Positions 15,247 to 44,832 of a stretch of 47,018 bases of DNA are shown here, piece after piece. A program made the position numbers and the translations under genes. The notes beneath the pieces are model-generated. The model made no database searches. It was given only the letters and a program-made list of their open reading frames with translations, and was not told the DNA's origin. This stretch comes from a virus. Lineage: Duplodnaviria > Caudoviricetes. Where the stretch lies: the IMG/VR virus record IMGVR_UViG_3300017700_000722, positions 1-47,018 of that record, one strand, 5' to 3'. Numbering within the stretch: position 1 is the stretch's first letter; every line of letters starts with the position of its first letter.

Positions 15247-16277
15247 ATCAGCCCCCGCCCTTTGGCCCGCCCGCCGCCGCCGCGTGGGGGGCTCCCGCCG
15301 CCCCGCCACAGGCCTACGCGCAGCCGCCCGCCCCGCCAGGGTGGGGGCAGCCCCCGGGCCCTCCGCCGCCCGCGCAGCCGCAAGCGTGGGGCCCTCCACC
15401 CGCGCAGCCGCCCGCCGCACAGTGGGGCCCGCCTCCGGGGGCGCAGGGCGGCTATGCGCCCGCTGGCATGCCTCCCGCCGGGCCTCCGGGCCCTCCGCCC
15501 GCACAGTGGGGCGCGACCCCTCCCGCCCCCGTCCAAAGCGCTGGCGCGCTCATGGCGCAGGCGTGGGGGCCCGCTCCGCAAGCCATGCCCCCCATGGTCG
15601 CGGTTCCCGCCGCTGAGCACGATCTCAACTCCGCCAAAGATGAGGCGGATCGCTTCCCGCGCATCGAGGCGGGCGCAACGTGCGATTGCGTCGTCGAACG
15701 CGTGCACAAGGTGCCGACCCGTGGAAAGGGCGATTTCGTGGAATTCGTGTTCAAGGTGGTTCGCTCGAACCATCCGCGAATGCCCGTCGGTCACATGTGG
15801 AGTATCTTTCAATCCTGCTCGTTCGACGGGGTAGACAAGATTTTCCGCGGTATCGTGCTCGCGATCATGGGTTACTCGAAAGAAGATTTCGAGGCCCTCA
15901 AGGCGGCGGGCACGCCTCCCGACCTCAACGGAACTTGGCGCGCCATCCGCGAGCCTCACAACCCGGCGCACGGTCGCATGGTCCGCGCGACCGCGAAGAC
16001 CTCGATTGCAGGCCCGCGATCGAAGCACGCGGGTAAGGCGTTCACGGATGCGAAGCTCTCGAAATACATCGAGGGCGCGCCGCTTCCCGAGCTCGCCGCG
16101 GGAGCTCCCGCCGCGCAGGCAGCACCCCCGCCGCCTCCGCCCCCGCCTCCCGCACAATTCGCGGCGCCTCCCCCCGTTGGGCCCGCCGCACCCGTCACGC
16201 CGCTCCCGCCTCATCTTTGGCGGAACGACGCCGACGGTTCGATCTGGGATCTCAACACACGGAGTCGCGTCCAATGA
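15243..16277 (+). CDS. Putative single-stranded DNA-binding protein with Pro-rich termini
   Basis: Central beta-rich OB-fold-like core (RFPRIEAG..DCVVERV...FVEFVFKVV) located between helicase and polymerase genes; function is inferred. Confidence 0.55.
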   Translation: MNQPPPFGPPAAAAWGAPAAPPQAYAQPPAPPGWGQPPGPPPPAQPQAWGPPPAQPPAAQWGPPPGAQGGYAPAGMPPAGPPGPPPAQWGATPPAPVQSAGALMAQAWGPAPQAMPPMVAVPAAEHDLNSAKDEADRFPRIEAGATCDCVVERVHKVPTRGKGDFVEFVFKVVRSNHPRMPVGHMWSIFQSCSFDGVDKIFRGIVLAIMGYSKEDFEALKAAGTPPDLNGTWRAIREPHNPAHGRMVRATAKTSIAGPRSKHAGKAFTDAKLSKYIEGAPLPELAAGAPAAQAAPPPPPPPPPAQFAAPPPVGPAAPVTPLPPHLWRNDADGSIWDLNTRSRVQ

Positions 16278-16507
16278 AATTCTCGCCCTACGTTTCCAAG
16301 TCGGTCTATTCCAAGGTTGCCAGCGATCACAAGATCAAGGCATCGCAGATCCTCGAGCACAAGGACGCACGCGCGCAGGTGTTCAAGAGCTGCTATGAGG
16401 CGGGCCTCACGATGCTCGAGATCGCAACCCAATTCGATACGACGCCGCCGACGGTCTATCGAAACATGAAACGCGCCTACCCGAAGGAATTCCGCGGGCG
16501 CGCGTGA
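16274..16507 (+). CDS. Small helix-turn-helix protein
   Basis: GLTMLEIATQFDTTPPTVYRNMKR. Confidence 0.75.
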   Translation: MKFSPYVSKSVYSKVASDHKIKASQILEHKDARAQVFKSCYEAGLTMLEIATQFDTTPPTVYRNMKRAYPKEFRGRA

Positions 16508-16607
16508 GACGTGCGACACCCCTAGCCCAAAGCCATTGGTAGCCGGGTGTGGGATCGCAGAACGAGCGTAGGGTGCCCCGCTCCCTTGGAAATAGGGCAC
16601 CAATCTT

Positions 16608-16669
16608 CCCCACTAGGAGGCCCGCCCATCGAGGCGGGATCCGTCGTTCGATTCGGCGGGTGGGGGCCC
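16608..16669 (+). ncRNA. D-armless tRNA-like element A
   Basis: Acceptor CCCCACT/GGTGGGG; T-arm CGTCG-TTCGATT-CGGCG; central stem CCCGCC-CATCGA-GGCGGG; D arm replaced by AGGAGG. Confidence 0.6.
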
Positions 16670-16845
16670 GGGTGCTGAAACGATAGGCAGCCCGTTTGCA
16701 CATTCCACGACCAACGAAATCCGGGGCCTCATGTAGCAGTCGAGCGGGTGACGCCCGCGACCTCGCCGAAAAAAGGCAAAAGCAAAGCAGAGTGGGCCCG
16801 CACCCCTCGACCGTTCAGCGACTGTTTCAGGGGTGCGGGCATTTT

Positions 16846-16985
16846 CCCTCGGATTGGCGGAAGTGCCCGAGGCACCGAAACCGAAAGGTTCACGGCCCAA
16901 AGGCTAGGCATACGCGACCCCTAGAGGGGTGCACTAGTACCGCGAGGGCTAGGCAATGCGGGTTCGAGTCCCGCACGAGGGGCTA
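16846..16985 (+). ncRNA. Type-II (Leu/Ser-like) tRNA mimic B with a D-loop insertion and a 4-nt anticodon loop
   Basis: CCCTCG..TGGCGGAA[43-nt insert]AGGCATACGCG-ACCCC-TAGA-GGGGT, long variable arm, GCGGG-TTCGAGT-CCCGC-ACGAGGG-G-CTA. Confidence 0.7.
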
Positions 16986-19013
16986 ATGTTAGGTTGGGAT
17001 TTCGAGACCGAACCGTTTTCGCCAGGGGATCAATTCCCGCTTGCGGCGTGCCTCTCGTGGGCCGACCTCAACGGGAACGCGGGCCTATTGCACGGGCTCG
17101 ATCCTCAAACGCCGCTTGCGCTGGCGCAGGCGTTCGCAGGTAATACGGCGGGGGCTAACACGGCGTTCGACGCGGGCGTAGCGTTGCGCAATTACCCCGA
17201 GCTCGGGCCCGCGATATTCGACGCCTACGATTCGGATCGCGTCTATGACGTGCTGATCCGCCAGCAATTGATCGACCTCGCGGAGGGGCGACTACGAGGC
17301 TACCGAAGGGGCGAAGGCGGGAAGCTCGAAAAAATCGGGTATGGCCTCGATGAGGTCGCGCCGCGTAATGGCTTCCCGATGCCAAAGAAGGCGAAGCTAC
17401 GCAAGGGGCAAGAGATCCCGCGGAGCTCGCCCGACTATTGGCGGCGTCGCTACAATGAGCTCCGCCCGCTCATGCTCGAGGAATGGCCCGACGACGCCCG
17501 CAAGTATGCGATCGACGACGCCCGCGCCACAGTGGCAACCGTCGCGTGTCAGCAAGCAAAGGCGCACCTGCTCGACGATCAATTCCGGCAATGCCGCGCC
17601 GACTTTGCGCTAAAGCTCACGAGTGCTCGCGGGCTGATTACGGATCCTGACGCCGTCCCGTATTTCGAGCGGGCTATCGAGCGAAGGATCGGCGAGCTCC
17701 GCGACGTGCTTTCCGAGCCCGCCGCTTGGATGTGGTCGGGCTCGCAGTGGGAAGGCGCGGGCCTCGTGCGTGAGGATGGCTCCCGCGACATGAAAGCCGC
17801 CCGCGCGCGCATGGTGGCAGTGTGCCAACGCGAGGGGATCCCGGTCAAGCTCACCCCGAAGGTTTGGAAAGTCTCGAAAAAAACGGGCGAGCGCTACGAG
17901 TCGGGCGGCGAGGTCATGACCGACGCCGACACGTGCGAAGAGACGGGCGATGAGATCCTAAAGTTGTTTGGGGAATACGCCCAAATGATCGCGGTCAAGT
18001 CGAAGGATCTCGAATTCCTGACGCGAGGCACGCGCGAGCCGATCCATTGCCGTTACAATTGCATCCTCGAGACGGGCCGCACGTCGTCGAGCAAGCCCAA
18101 CGTTCAGAACTTGCGCACGCTGCCAGGCATCCGCGAGGCGTTCATACCTCGAGCGGGCTACGTGTTCGCAATGGCGGACTATTCCGGCCTCGAATTGGCA
18201 ATGATGGCGCAGGCCTGCCTAGAGCTCGTAGGCTTCTCGCACCTCGCCGACGCAATCAACGCGAACCGCGACGCACATCTAGAGGTTGCCGCTCGCATCC
18301 TGCAACGCCCGTACGATGAGCTCGTAACGATTTACGAGAACGAGGATCACCCGGAATGGGACGTCGTTTACAAGGCGCGCCAAACGGGCAAGGTCGCTAA
18401 CTTCGGGTTCCCTGGCGGGCTCGGAGCCGCGACGCTAGTGGAATACGCCCGCGCCCTTTACAACGTGCGGATCACGGAAGCGGAGGCCAAAAACCTTAAG
18501 CGCATTTGGCTCGACACGTTCCCCGAATTCCGCCGCTACTTCCAAATCATTGGCGCAGCCGTCGAGCGTGGCTTGGGTATTACCCAACTCTACACGCGCA
18601 GGCATCGGGGCAAGGTCACCTATTGCGCCGCCGCGAACACGCTGTTTCAGGGGCTCGGCGCCGACGTCGCGAAATCGGCGGGGTGGAAAATCGCCCGCGC
18701 TTGCTTCAATGACGTTCATTCGCCGCTATGGGGATCGTTCCCGGTCGTGTTCGCCCACGATGAATGGATCTTGGAAGTGCCCGAGTACAAGGCGCACGAG
18801 GCTGCGATCGAATTGGAACGCCTCATGCTCGAGGCAGCCCGCGAGCTCGTGAAAGGTGTACGCCTCAAGGCTGCCCCGAAGCTCGCGCGGCGTTGGGCGA
18901 AGAAAGCGAAAACGCTAAAAGATGGTAATGGGCGCTTGATTCCGTGGGATAAGCCTTACCTTGAGCTCATGAAAACGAGTGAGGCGGAAGACAAGCGAAA
19001 GCAGGCAGCATGA
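16986..19013 (+). CDS. polA: Family A DNA polymerase with 3'-5' exonuclease
   Basis: ExoI DFET, ExoII NTAFD, ExoIII YAIDD; TGRTSSSKPNVQN; motif A ADYSGLE; motif B RQTGKVANFG; motif C HDE. Start placed at ATG 16986 after GAGGGG. Confidence 0.95.
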   Translation: MLGWDFETEPFSPGDQFPLAACLSWADLNGNAGLLHGLDPQTPLALAQAFAGNTAGANTAFDAGVALRNYPELGPAIFDAYDSDRVYDVLIRQQLIDLAEGRLRGYRRGEGGKLEKIGYGLDEVAPRNGFPMPKKAKLRKGQEIPRSSPDYWRRRYNELRPLMLEEWPDDARKYAIDDARATVATVACQQAKAHLLDDQFRQCRADFALKLTSARGLITDPDAVPYFERAIERRIGELRDVLSEPAAWMWSGSQWEGAGLVREDGSRDMKAARARMVAVCQREGIPVKLTPKVWKVSKKTGERYESGGEVMTDADTCEETGDEILKLFGEYAQMIAVKSKDLEFLTRGTREPIHCRYNCILETGRTSSSKPNVQNLRTLPGIREAFIPRAGYVFAMADYSGLELAMMAQACLELVGFSHLADAINANRDAHLEVAARILQRPYDELVTIYENEDHPEWDVVYKARQTGKVANFGFPGGLGAATLVEYARALYNVRITEAEAKNLKRIWLDTFPEFRRYFQIIGAAVERGLGITQLYTRRHRGKVTYCAAANTLFQGLGADVAKSAGWKIARACFNDVHSPLWGSFPVVFAHDEWILEVPEYKAHEAAIELERLMLEAARELVKGVRLKAAPKLARRWAKKAKTLKDGNGRLIPWDKPYLELMKTSEAEDKRKQAA

Positions 19014-21830: not shown

Positions 21831-21991
21831 AGCGCATTACGATCGAGCTCAACGAAAAAGATCACGCCCGTTTGGTCGCGCTGGCGCGCGCCAAGAACGC
21901 CACGCCCGAGGCTTGCTTGATTCGCATGGTGCAATCTTGCCAGCCGAACGGATCGGGGTGGGTACACCCGGCGGATAAACCCAAGTCATGA
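21827..21991 (+). CDS. Ribbon-helix-helix (CopG-like) protein (54 aa, not in the ORF track)
   Basis: MKRITIELNEKDHARLVALARAKNAT; overlaps the methyltransferase start. Confidence 0.6.
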   Translation: MKRITIELNEKDHARLVALARAKNATPEACLIRMVQSCQPNGSGWVHPADKPKS

Positions 21992-22782
21992 TCTATCACG
22001 GCAACATGCTCGAGATCAGCCCCGCGGCGGTCGCGACTTACGACGTAATGCTAACGGATCCCCCCTACCGGGAGCACGTGCACTCCGCCGCGACGTCGCA
22101 AAGCGTTGGGCGAGGGACGCGAAAACGCGATCTCGGGTTCGAGTCACTCTCGCGAGCGCTTCGCCAGCGCACGGCGGATTACGCCTCGATGGTCCGCCGC
22201 TGGTCGGTCGTATATTCCGACGTCGAGGATTCGACTTGGCTGCGCCTCGCCGTTCAAGCTCGCGGCGTGGATTACATCCGGACCATACCATGGGTGCGTT
22301 GGAGCATGCCGCAACTCTCGGGCGACCGCCCGCCTCAAGGGTTCGAGCATTTGCTCGTGTTTCACCCAAAAGGGCGCAAGCGTTGGAATGGGCCCGGCAA
22401 CCTCACGCACCTCGAGCACCTTGCGCTTAGGGGCGAGGGGAAACACAAATGCGAGAAACCTCTCGATCAGGCGCTCGATCTGGTGAGCTACTTTTCAGAT
22501 CGCGGGGAAACCGTGTTCGATCCCTTCTCAGGGTCGGGCGTGTTCGCGCTGGCGGCTCGGCTGCTCGAACGGAACTTCATTGGCGTCGAGCTCGATCTCG
22601 AATGGGTGGCGAAGGGCAACGCCCGAGCTACAAGCCGCCTTAGCGCTCGCGACCATGAGCGTTTGACTCGATGGCTCGACGCGCCCACGGAGCCCGTTAG
22701 CGCGCTCGCGGAGGGCCCTAGCCTCGTGCGTGCCTCGAACCGTCGCGGCGATCGGGAGCTCGCCGCAAGGGCCCTCCAATGA
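21988..22782 (+). CDS. Beta-class N6-adenine/N4-cytosine DNA methyltransferase
   Basis: TDPPY precedes H..EKP and VFDPFSGSG...FIGVE. Confidence 0.92.
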   Translation: MIYHGNMLEISPAAVATYDVMLTDPPYREHVHSAATSQSVGRGTRKRDLGFESLSRALRQRTADYASMVRRWSVVYSDVEDSTWLRLAVQARGVDYIRTIPWVRWSMPQLSGDRPPQGFEHLLVFHPKGRKRWNGPGNLTHLEHLALRGEGKHKCEKPLDQALDLVSYFSDRGETVFDPFSGSGVFALAARLLERNFIGVELDLEWVAKGNARATSRLSARDHERLTRWLDAPTEPVSALAEGPSLVRASNRRGDRELAARALQ

Positions 22783-23207
22783 TGACGGTAAATTACCCCG
22801 AGCGGGATACGCTGCTCGTAACAGGGTCGCGCGACTGTAGGGCGCAGGGCTTGATCTTCGCCGACCTCGACTCGATCCTGATTTGCGTGCGGCCCATCCG
22901 CCGCCTCGTGCACGGGGATTGCCCCACGGGGGCGGATCGAATCGCCGACTTTTGGGCGAGGGCTCGCGGTCTCGAGGTGCTGCCCTACACCGTGAATCAC
23001 GAGCTCGACGGCCCATGGCCCGGCGCAGGCCCGCGCCGCAACGAACGCATGGTGCGGGCGGAGGCTCCGCGCCTGCGAGCGGTGTGCGCGTTCTCTGTGA
23101 CGCTACAGGGCTACACCCGCGGCACGGGCGGGTGTGTTGAGTTGGTCGATCGCTATCTGTCCGCCGTCGGGCGGAGCGTGCCGCGCTTCTCGGCGTTCGG
23201 CCGTTAG
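22779..23207 (+). CDS. YspA-like SLOG family protein
   Basis: LLVTGSRD, LVHGDCPTGAD, AGPRRNERM, RGT. Confidence 0.85.
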   Translation: MMTVNYPERDTLLVTGSRDCRAQGLIFADLDSILICVRPIRRLVHGDCPTGADRIADFWARARGLEVLPYTVNHELDGPWPGAGPRRNERMVRAEAPRLRAVCAFSVTLQGYTRGTGGCVELVDRYLSAVGRSVPRFSAFGR

Positions 23208-44331: not shown

Positions 44332-44651
44332 GCGCGCTCAACGAAAACTTGCATTGCGCCTTTTGGAAATCCGCCTAGGCGTTGCACGCGCAGGCGAACC
44401 GACGTCGGCGAGAGCACCTCGACGCTTCCGTGGTACATCCCCACGACGCCCTCGATGCTGGTGTAAATATCCTCTTGCACGTCGGGCGCGCTCGAGAACA
44501 CGGCATACACCCGGATCGTTGGCTCGTAGGGGTAGCTTCCCGACGTCGCGGGCTGCGCGTATTCCAGAATCCCCCGAGGCTCGACGCCGCCGTGGTCGCA
44601 CGTGCCATCCTCCGAGGATCCGGAAAGGTTCACGCCCGCGTATTCAGCCAT
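44328..44651 (-). CDS. Small putative virion protein, paralog 1
   Basis: N-terminus MAEYAGVNLSGSSEDGTCDHGGVE. Confidence 0.7.
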   Translation of the reverse strand: MAEYAGVNLSGSSEDGTCDHGGVEPRGILEYAQPATSGSYPYEPTIRVYAVFSSAPDVQEDIYTSIEGVVGMYHGSVEVLSPTSVRLRVQRLGGFPKGAMQVFVERA

Positions 44652-44832
44652 CGGGATTTACCTCCGTGATCGTCACATACACTTCCGCGAAGGGCGTGAT
44701 CTTGCTGCCGACCACGGGCGCAATGTCCGCGACCTCTAGCCCTGTGTTCTTTACCAGCAATTCGACTCCGCCGTGGTCGCACGTGCCGACCTCGACGGAA
44801 CCGGAAAGCTCGACGCCCGGATAGGTGGCCAT
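44644..44832 (-). CDS. Small putative virion protein, paralog 2
   Basis: N-terminus MATYPGVELSGSVEVGTCDHGGVE. Confidence 0.65.
   Translation of the reverse strand: MATYPGVELSGSVEVGTCDHGGVELLVKNTGLEVADIAPVVGSKITPFAEVYVTITEVNPDG

Follow-up and report, generated by a model that had tools for sequence, protein, structure and literature searches.

The window, the whole stretch of DNA analysed here (47,018 nucleotides), represents an entire phage genome of 47 kb and carries direct terminal repeats. A freshwater metagenome, the data set that best contains it, may be its source. In its gene annotation, a contractile-tail gene set lies on the minus strand and replication genes lie on the plus strand. 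Approximately 480 nt without a convincing gene separate a small helix-turn-helix gene, which ends at 16507, from polA (16986..19013, plus strand), a family A DNA polymerase gene of 675 aa identified by homology and a database gene call. The polA start at 16986 is backed by that call and by the in-register starts of homologues, and translation most likely begins there; an in-frame ATG at 16956 may be an alternative start. No sigma-70 promoter was found in a scan of 16000-17200, and no repeated promoter-like motif was present among the 20 largest repeat families of the window. Elsewhere in the genome we observed two 71-nt copies near the terminase genes (44581-44651 and 44762-44832, 77% identical and 181 nt apart) and a YspA/SLOG-family gene (22779-23207) behind an N6/N4 DNA methyltransferase gene (21988-22782).

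The tRNA-like frame and its surroundings

A first-pass annotation of this DNA had described a type II skeleton of tRNA-Leu type beginning at 16846, and every feature it named can be read directly from the sequence. The frame occupies 16846..16982 on the plus strand (tRNA positions 1 to 73) and was recovered by inspection, pattern search, folding, a covariance model and ARAGORN with introns allowed. In the acceptor, 16846-16851 pairs with 16976-16981 (6 bp), followed by a GA bulge and a U16854-A16975 pair. The D signature consists of TGGCGGAA at 16855-16862 and GGCATACGCG at 16907-16916, and between A15 and G18 it is split by a D-loop insert of 44 nt (16863..16906; fold z -1.41 alone). The insert holds the three mini-hairpins reported earlier, at 16863-75 (3-nt loop), 16879-90 (GAAA loop) and 16894/5-16904/5. 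The anticodon arm (16917..16930) is only 14 nt long; its 5-bp stem, 16917-21 with 16926-30, encloses nothing but the 4-nt loop UAGA, bearing out the shortening first described, and no 7-nt loop can be drawn. A long (type II) variable arm with a GCGA loop (16931..16955) and a perfect T-arm (16958..16974) follow. The segment 16975..16985 comprises the acceptor 3' strand, G73 at 16982 and a CTA spacer, which leaves 3 nt between N73 and the polA ATG, and the Shine-Dalgarno (SD)-like tract GAGGGG lies within it at 16977-16982. When the element was folded alone, predicted pair probabilities were 0.96-0.99 for the acceptor, T and anticodon stems (0.70 for the outermost anticodon pair) and 0.47 for the D stem. 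All D/T signature bases are intact; pairing is seen in the anticodon stem, in the variable arm and in each of the three stems of the insert, and two of the loops are GNRA loops.

The tRNA-type frame is far beyond chance: the window contains a single copy of the combined D-signature and T-loop pattern, which 0/100 shuffles contain. A covariance model built from 27 other phage sequences, with the window excluded, had its sole window match at 16844-16986 (35.7 bits, E 2.3e-8), although the model is not class-specific and ordinary Leu tRNAs score higher (39-45 bits). The folding energy of the element is modestly unusual (z -1.36, and z -1.88 with 13/300 shuffles in a second run). ARAGORN missed the element by default and returned a frame with identical ends when introns were allowed, and Rfam gave no meaningful match to the element under loose or strict settings. 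An intron-containing tRNA was rejected, as removal of the insert still leaves a 4-nt anticodon loop and the ARAGORN intron call is a forced parse; a tmRNA was rejected because neither ARAGORN nor Rfam found a tag reading frame or tmRNA fold. A 151-nt contig from another study spans 16893-17041 with 2 differences, at a depth of 2, whereas sequencing runs presumed to be RNA gave no coverage of the element.

A 4-nt loop is unable to present an anticodon, and the element is real, derived from tRNA-Leu and almost certainly non-decoding, as the first-pass annotation had held. It has the Leu-type D signature, long variable arm and T-arm of a decoding tRNA-Leu but lacks the 7-nt loop and A73. It also has the G73 and long arm of a tRNA-Ser, yet G72, C2-G71 and U4-A69 stand in place of C72, G2-C71 and R4-Y69. 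In the accessible text of PMC9976931, bacterial Leu identity requires A73, G73 is an antideterminant for LeuRS and C2-G71 is an antideterminant for SerRS. Given the G73, G72 and C2-G71 of the element, charging by LeuRS or SerRS, and with it aminoacylation as judged from these bases, is unlikely. A decoy role had also been suggested. Anticodon nucleases recognise features that a 4-nt loop does not have, which makes the element a poor target for them, and any decoy would instead have to target proteins that bind the top half.

Directly 5' of the frame is a hairpin (16796..16845, plus strand) with a perfect 12-bp stem followed by AUUUU (z -5.07, 0/300 shuffles), which we infer either to resemble a terminator or to protect the 3' end of the RNA upstream. 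A hairpin and short pyrimidine tract can also be seen before the frame in several relatives, but this did not stand out from background, as 56% of random window positions pass the test. Further upstream, ARAGORN and folding indicate a second tRNA-like element (16576..16666, plus strand) of type II shape; it has four arms, a loop of 6 nt where the anticodon would lie, C1-G72, G73 and no CCA. Its acceptor has the same C-rich/G-rich strands as that of the 16846 element, with no gene behind it. The ARAGORN call of this element as tRNA-Gly(tcc) looks forced. A frame in one polA relative (L040:724-789) is loosely similar to it and ends in ACCA. The sequence between the two elements (16670-16795) contains more hairpins, one with an A6 loop, and has no Rfam match. 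Two neighbouring 8-mers at 16517-16532 recur in the 16846 element, in its anticodon arm and the third hairpin of its insert, and 16521-16528 is complementary to its variable arm at 16946-16953, a possible long-range pairing or trace of duplication. Six CTAG sites fall in 16508-16988, four of them within the 16846 element, whereas the genome-wide frequency (52 in 47 kb) predicts 0.53 (uncorrected p 1.6e-5), and GGCTA is present three times in the element; the CTAG excess may just mirror non-coding sequence.

Relatives of the locus and other D-loop-extended frames

A blastn search of the element region against GenBank phages gave zero matches, and a single-protein search of viral contigs gave no match. 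A metagenome scan with the five closest polymerases recovered 15 loci including the window itself, none with more than 39% identity. Besides the window, the polA relatives comprise 64 viral and 14 metagenome loci; a tree was built with FastTree. Gene order is kept among them: a helicase-like gene, a variable interval that is the tRNA site, polA and a RuvC-like gene (labelled from the L001 annotation and tblastn). In four relatives (L028, L029, L032 and L062) the helicase-polA interval contains an intact tRNA-Leu(UAG). That of L032 carries the window's D-arm signature GGCATACGC, and the window's shrunken anticodon loop retains UAG. Synteny and signature together suggest that the element likely descends from a tRNA-Leu(UAG), in line with the tRNA-Leu origin proposed at first. 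The four genes share with the element its gene interval, D-arm signature, UAG in the loop and lack of CCA; they differ from it in their 7-nt loop, A73, G1 and normal D loop, in being capable of decoding and in having no SD in the acceptor.

Of 54 relatives, 18 have T-arm motifs 5' of polA in the coding orientation (21 motifs in 128 kb versus 9 in 565 kb of control sequence, an enrichment of about tenfold); the upstream DNA obtained for the other 36 has none. Several of the motifs belong to frames unable to decode (L040, L031 and L070). Minimal or odd tRNA-like frames were observed upstream of polA at L070:2416-2464, L031:718-766, L025:1874-2110 and L049:2021-2125; the L070 frame is an acceptor, one short hairpin and a T-arm, 33 nt ahead of the polA ATG.

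In L028, L029 and L032, an ATG follows N73 of the tRNA-Leu(UAG) after 2, 3 and 3 nt, opening mutually dissimilar, putative ORFs of 35, 70 and 30 codons, respectively. None of these ATGs is preceded by an SD (-3.8, +0.6 and +0.4 kcal/mol). The ORFs have no PHROG match, and the 70-aa ORF, which is gene-called at the junction start, has no homologue beyond itself. When 28 Leu(UAG) loci (18 of them distinct) were scanned separately, the N73-(2-3 nt)-ATG junction was present in 3/4 of the family's Leu(UAG) genes versus 0/14 distinct ones from other phages; the Fisher p of 0.005 is overstated, because the three relatives form one clade apart from the window's lineage in the FastTree tree, so that they represent one event and the junction counts as two lineages rather than four cases. 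Since the relatives' tRNA-Leu(UAG) lies in the same interval and three of four end 2-3 nt before an AUG, the tRNA-AUG junction at polA looks inherited. The link between tRNA end and polA initiation drawn in the first-pass annotation is supported.

We searched IMG/VR for Leu-type frames in which 6-67 nt separate A15 from G18 and obtained 63 loci, with 49 distinct matches besides the window; a narrower first scan had given 22 loci. We retained matches with a full T stem, at least 6/7 acceptor pairs (a pairing test that random 7-mers pass at 1.4%), an insert of at least 15 nt and no ordinary D arm within the insert. By this filter, 27 of the 49 are full frames around unrelated inserts. Most of the 22 rejected matches were ordinary tRNAs that happened to have the motif upstream; three had short inserts, two were matched out of register, and two look genuine but did not survive the filter. 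The inserts of the 27 class members are 17-59 nt long, mostly hairpin-forming and not mutually alignable. A 5-bp stem with a 7-nt anticodon loop can be parsed in 2/27, with L103 near-canonical besides, and L129 shares the window's 5-bp/4-nt anticodon arm. The G-CTA end of the element is as first described, but its missing CCA is not the abnormality it was taken for: CCA is encoded in none of the four relatives' Leu(UAG) genes and in only 4/27 class members. The element shares with the class the structured A15-G18 insert (44 nt against 17-59 nt) and the intact D/T signature. Its acceptor of 6 bp and a 2-nt bulge, instead of 7 uninterrupted bp, would fail the filter, so that it differs from the class on the very pairing for which the 27 members were chosen.

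The nearest ORF of 50 codons is 13-449 nt from the 27 class members; none of them abuts a gene, and polA is directly downstream of none. An ATG at +2 or +4 in two members opens just 9 or 2 codons, and such triplets thus arise without a gene too. The window is the one case seen in which a non-decoding frame abuts a certain gene. In the class alignment 99.5% of positions in pairs are paired and 10/15 pairs have two-sided changes, but the rows were preselected for pairing and these counts, being circular, carry no weight as proof. In bacterial and archaeal genomes (36/64 parts), the pattern in its GGCA variant gave 120 loci, of which two passed the filter, both with N gaps and neither genuine. 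Standard tRNA finders and Rfam miss such D-loop-extended frames, and an Rfam search of the class members gave no meaningful match. Two loci, L103:1186-1304 (minus strand, UAA) and L104:1192-1322 (plus strand, GUA), combine an insert with a near-canonical anticodon loop and are possibly decoding tRNAs with a greatly enlarged D loop. In L008 (67-181), L011, L013 and L018, the class member is closely preceded by a tRNA-like gene whose anticodon region is enlarged.

The closest known counterparts of the element are RNA1 and RNA2 of phage T5 (NC_005859), which are annotated as "tRNA-like stable RNA with unknown functions". They too are found in a phage genome and combine an acceptor and T-arm frame with a non-canonical anticodon arm; they lack CCA, are of similar size (144 and 125 nt) and score weakly with the class covariance model (23.8 and 16.8 bits). 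RNA1 shares the type II Leu-like frame, the T-arm and acceptor and a remodelled anticodon arm, but it has a normal D loop and enlarged anticodon arm where the element has an enlarged D loop and shrunken anticodon loop. The T5 RNAs lie within a tRNA cluster, whereas the element lies against the start codon of an essential gene. RNAC of T4 (rnaC, species 1 RNA), a stable RNA of 139 nt, likewise has a T-arm at its 3' end, but it lacks the Leu-type D signature and has long rods in place of the D and anticodon arms. Such phage RNAs have been annotated for decades without an assigned function, and the accessible text of PMC3014915 and PMC9697503 states the roles of the T4 stable RNAs as unknown. The bacterial Y RNA YrlA is also a tRNA mimic that occurs in phages, and in one species it is an RNase P substrate, according to the accessible part of PMC4201824. 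YrlA itself was rejected as an identity for the element: it is encoded beside Ro60, the genome has no Ro60 gene, and there is no Rfam match. The element is a D-loop-extended variant of the known phage tRNA-like RNAs, and we found no description of a D-loop-extended class of phage RNAs in the literature searched, to which few subscription or older papers belonged and the first T5 RNA studies did not.

Initiation at polA and competing folds

GAGG lies 5 nt ahead of the polA AUG and forms a predicted SD duplex of -7.2 kcal/mol, which is matched or beaten at 7/28 other gene starts examined; with this strength and spacing, SD-led initiation on uncut RNA is possible. The earlier statement that the only SD-like tract is in the acceptor 3' strand holds for the 16986 start, but the ATG at 16956 has a tract of its own (-6.4 kcal/mol). 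A rival to the acceptor stem is predicted within polA, where codons at 17050..17059 (plus strand) form a 10-bp helix with 16974-16983 (-18.7 kcal/mol, versus -12.7 kcal/mol for the acceptor duplex). A match of this kind is reached by 1/398 genome windows and by 24% of synonymous resamplings, and the polA codons are hence not tuned to it. With polA sequence included, the predicted probability of the acceptor falls from 0.98 to at most 0.06. The coding-helix fold is 7.6 kcal/mol better than the acceptor-plus-T state in a model that has neither tertiary contacts nor co-transcriptional folding.

The frame as a candidate processing mark

We tentatively read the element as a punctuation mark, the best of the readings weighed here, in which host tRNA-processing enzymes would cut out the frame and thereby make the 5' end of the polA message. 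Remodelling has changed the D loop and anticodon arm but spared the acceptor, T-arm and D/T signature, and the retained acceptor, T-arm and D/T elbow bases are what processing enzymes read. In the accessible text of PMC7479834, B. subtilis RNase Z contacts the T-arm and acceptor, can do without D arm and anticodon loop, and makes its cut behind the discriminator, although the enzyme of this phage's host may differ. RNase P accepts precursors without CCA and handles substrates other than tRNA, as stated in the accessible parts of PMC1874595 and PMC11143913, respectively. The start codon is 3 nt from N73, and in the relatives the tRNA-Leu(UAG) of the same interval ends 2-3 nt before an AUG in three cases, with no SD.

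RNase P would cut at the 5' end of the frame, leaving the upstream RNA with its 12-bp hairpin, and an RNase Z-type cut after G73 would remove the frame together with the SD. Leaderless or near-leaderless messages are translatable in bacteria. The product would begin CUA-AUG, predicted to be single-stranded and suited to leaderless-type initiation; in the predicted fold after a cut at G73, the first 9 nt, including the AUG, are unpaired. Uncut RNA would be poorly translated, as the SD strand would be engaged in one of two helices, the acceptor stem or the one with polA codons 17050-17059. Several features speak against processing. The trailer starts with C (C74), which slows RNase Z; according to the accessible text of PMC7479834, cytidines after the discriminator suppress the enzyme, CC and CCA being worst. 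In addition, a 2-nt bulge interrupts the acceptor, and polA codons are predicted to compete for its 3' strand.

The arrangement resembles the punctuation of animal mitochondrial transcripts, where, in the literature accessible to us, a tRNA fold likewise lies directly before a start codon and its excision gives a leaderless message. Mitochondrial punctuation is demonstrated and uses functional tRNAs, whereas here the frame belongs to a phage, is non-decoding, and its cutting is inferred. No description of tRNA punctuation in phages was found in the literature searched, with subscription and older papers mostly outside its scope. As most class members are not beside a start codon, punctuation cannot be what the class as a whole does. 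The stronger proposal, that the phage keeps a frame dead for decoding and charging purely as a cis cutting signal through which host RNase P and RNase Z make the leaderless polymerase mRNA, such that host tRNA processing gates phage DNA replication, is somewhat less probable.

The frame may alternatively be a trans-acting stable RNA like T5 RNA1/RNA2 and T4 rnaC, which by analogy would be excised, accumulate and bind a host protein that recognises the top half, for example an acceptor-end toxin or processing enzyme, while the inserted hairpins make other contacts. We consider this unlikely, although it accounts for several observations. The 27 class members have structured inserts and no adjacent start codon, 44 extra nt are needless for a pure cut signal, a second such element lies 180 nt upstream, and the precedents are annotated as stable RNAs, with T4 RNAC seen by Northern blot in the accessible part of PMC9697503. 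The polA junction would then be inherited packing, with polA translated from unprocessed or differently started transcripts. The genome, however, lacks a Ro60/TROVE gene, and the identity bases fit neither LeuRS nor SerRS. Processing also cannot be neutral for polA, because excision takes the only SD of the 16986 start. A processing mark and a trans-acting stable RNA can both hold.

Somewhat less probable still is that the element is a decaying tRNA-Leu(UAG) with a neutral insertion, whose G-rich strand was recruited as an ordinary ribosome-binding site after intervening genes were lost. The bulged acceptor, C1, G73 and CTA would be expected of decay, as would a folding z of just -1.9, the lack of a T-arm in the upstream DNA obtained for 36/54 relatives and our failure to find a close homologue with covariation in the insert. 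The first-pass annotation had taken the intact inserted stems as a sign of selection; no close homologue of the inserts was found. Yet the T-arm and D/T signature bases are intact although the anticodon loop is lost, and pairing is kept in the anticodon stem, in the variable arm and in every stem of the insert, with two GNRA loops. The same remodelling is found in 27 unrelated sequences, one of which (L129) has an anticodon arm of the same 5-bp/4-nt form, and the contig from another study preserves 16893-17041 with 2 differences (depth 2).

The least probable alternative, and the one we doubt most, is the cis switch suggested by the first-pass annotation, in which the acceptor would sequester the polA SD and a tRNA-recognising factor or refolding would gate ribosome loading on the uncut transcript, so that complete processing would destroy rather than create the polA message. 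The SD is of usable strength and spacing, C1-C2-C3 of the acceptor 5' strand differs from the G1 of the relatives' Leu genes, and the acceptor and 17050-17059 helices are mutually exclusive, with opening of the site costing ~4.7 kcal/mol. The design is nonetheless conserved in 0/27 class members, which have no gene start closer than 13 nt, and in 0/3 junction-bearing relatives, which have no SD; the 16576 element has a like acceptor polarity with no gene behind it, and the competing helix arises in 24% of synonymous resamplings.

The processing-mark reading draws its interest from where the element lies: 3 nt separate it from an essential gene, and its processing must take away the sole Shine-Dalgarno of the 16986 start. 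If true, it would place mitochondrial-style punctuation in a phage and would explain why only the top half is conserved in such frames. Being unable to take part in translation, this frame would then offer bacterial tRNA punctuation its cleanest test case and give tRNA-like RNAs of the T5/T4 type their first assigned function.
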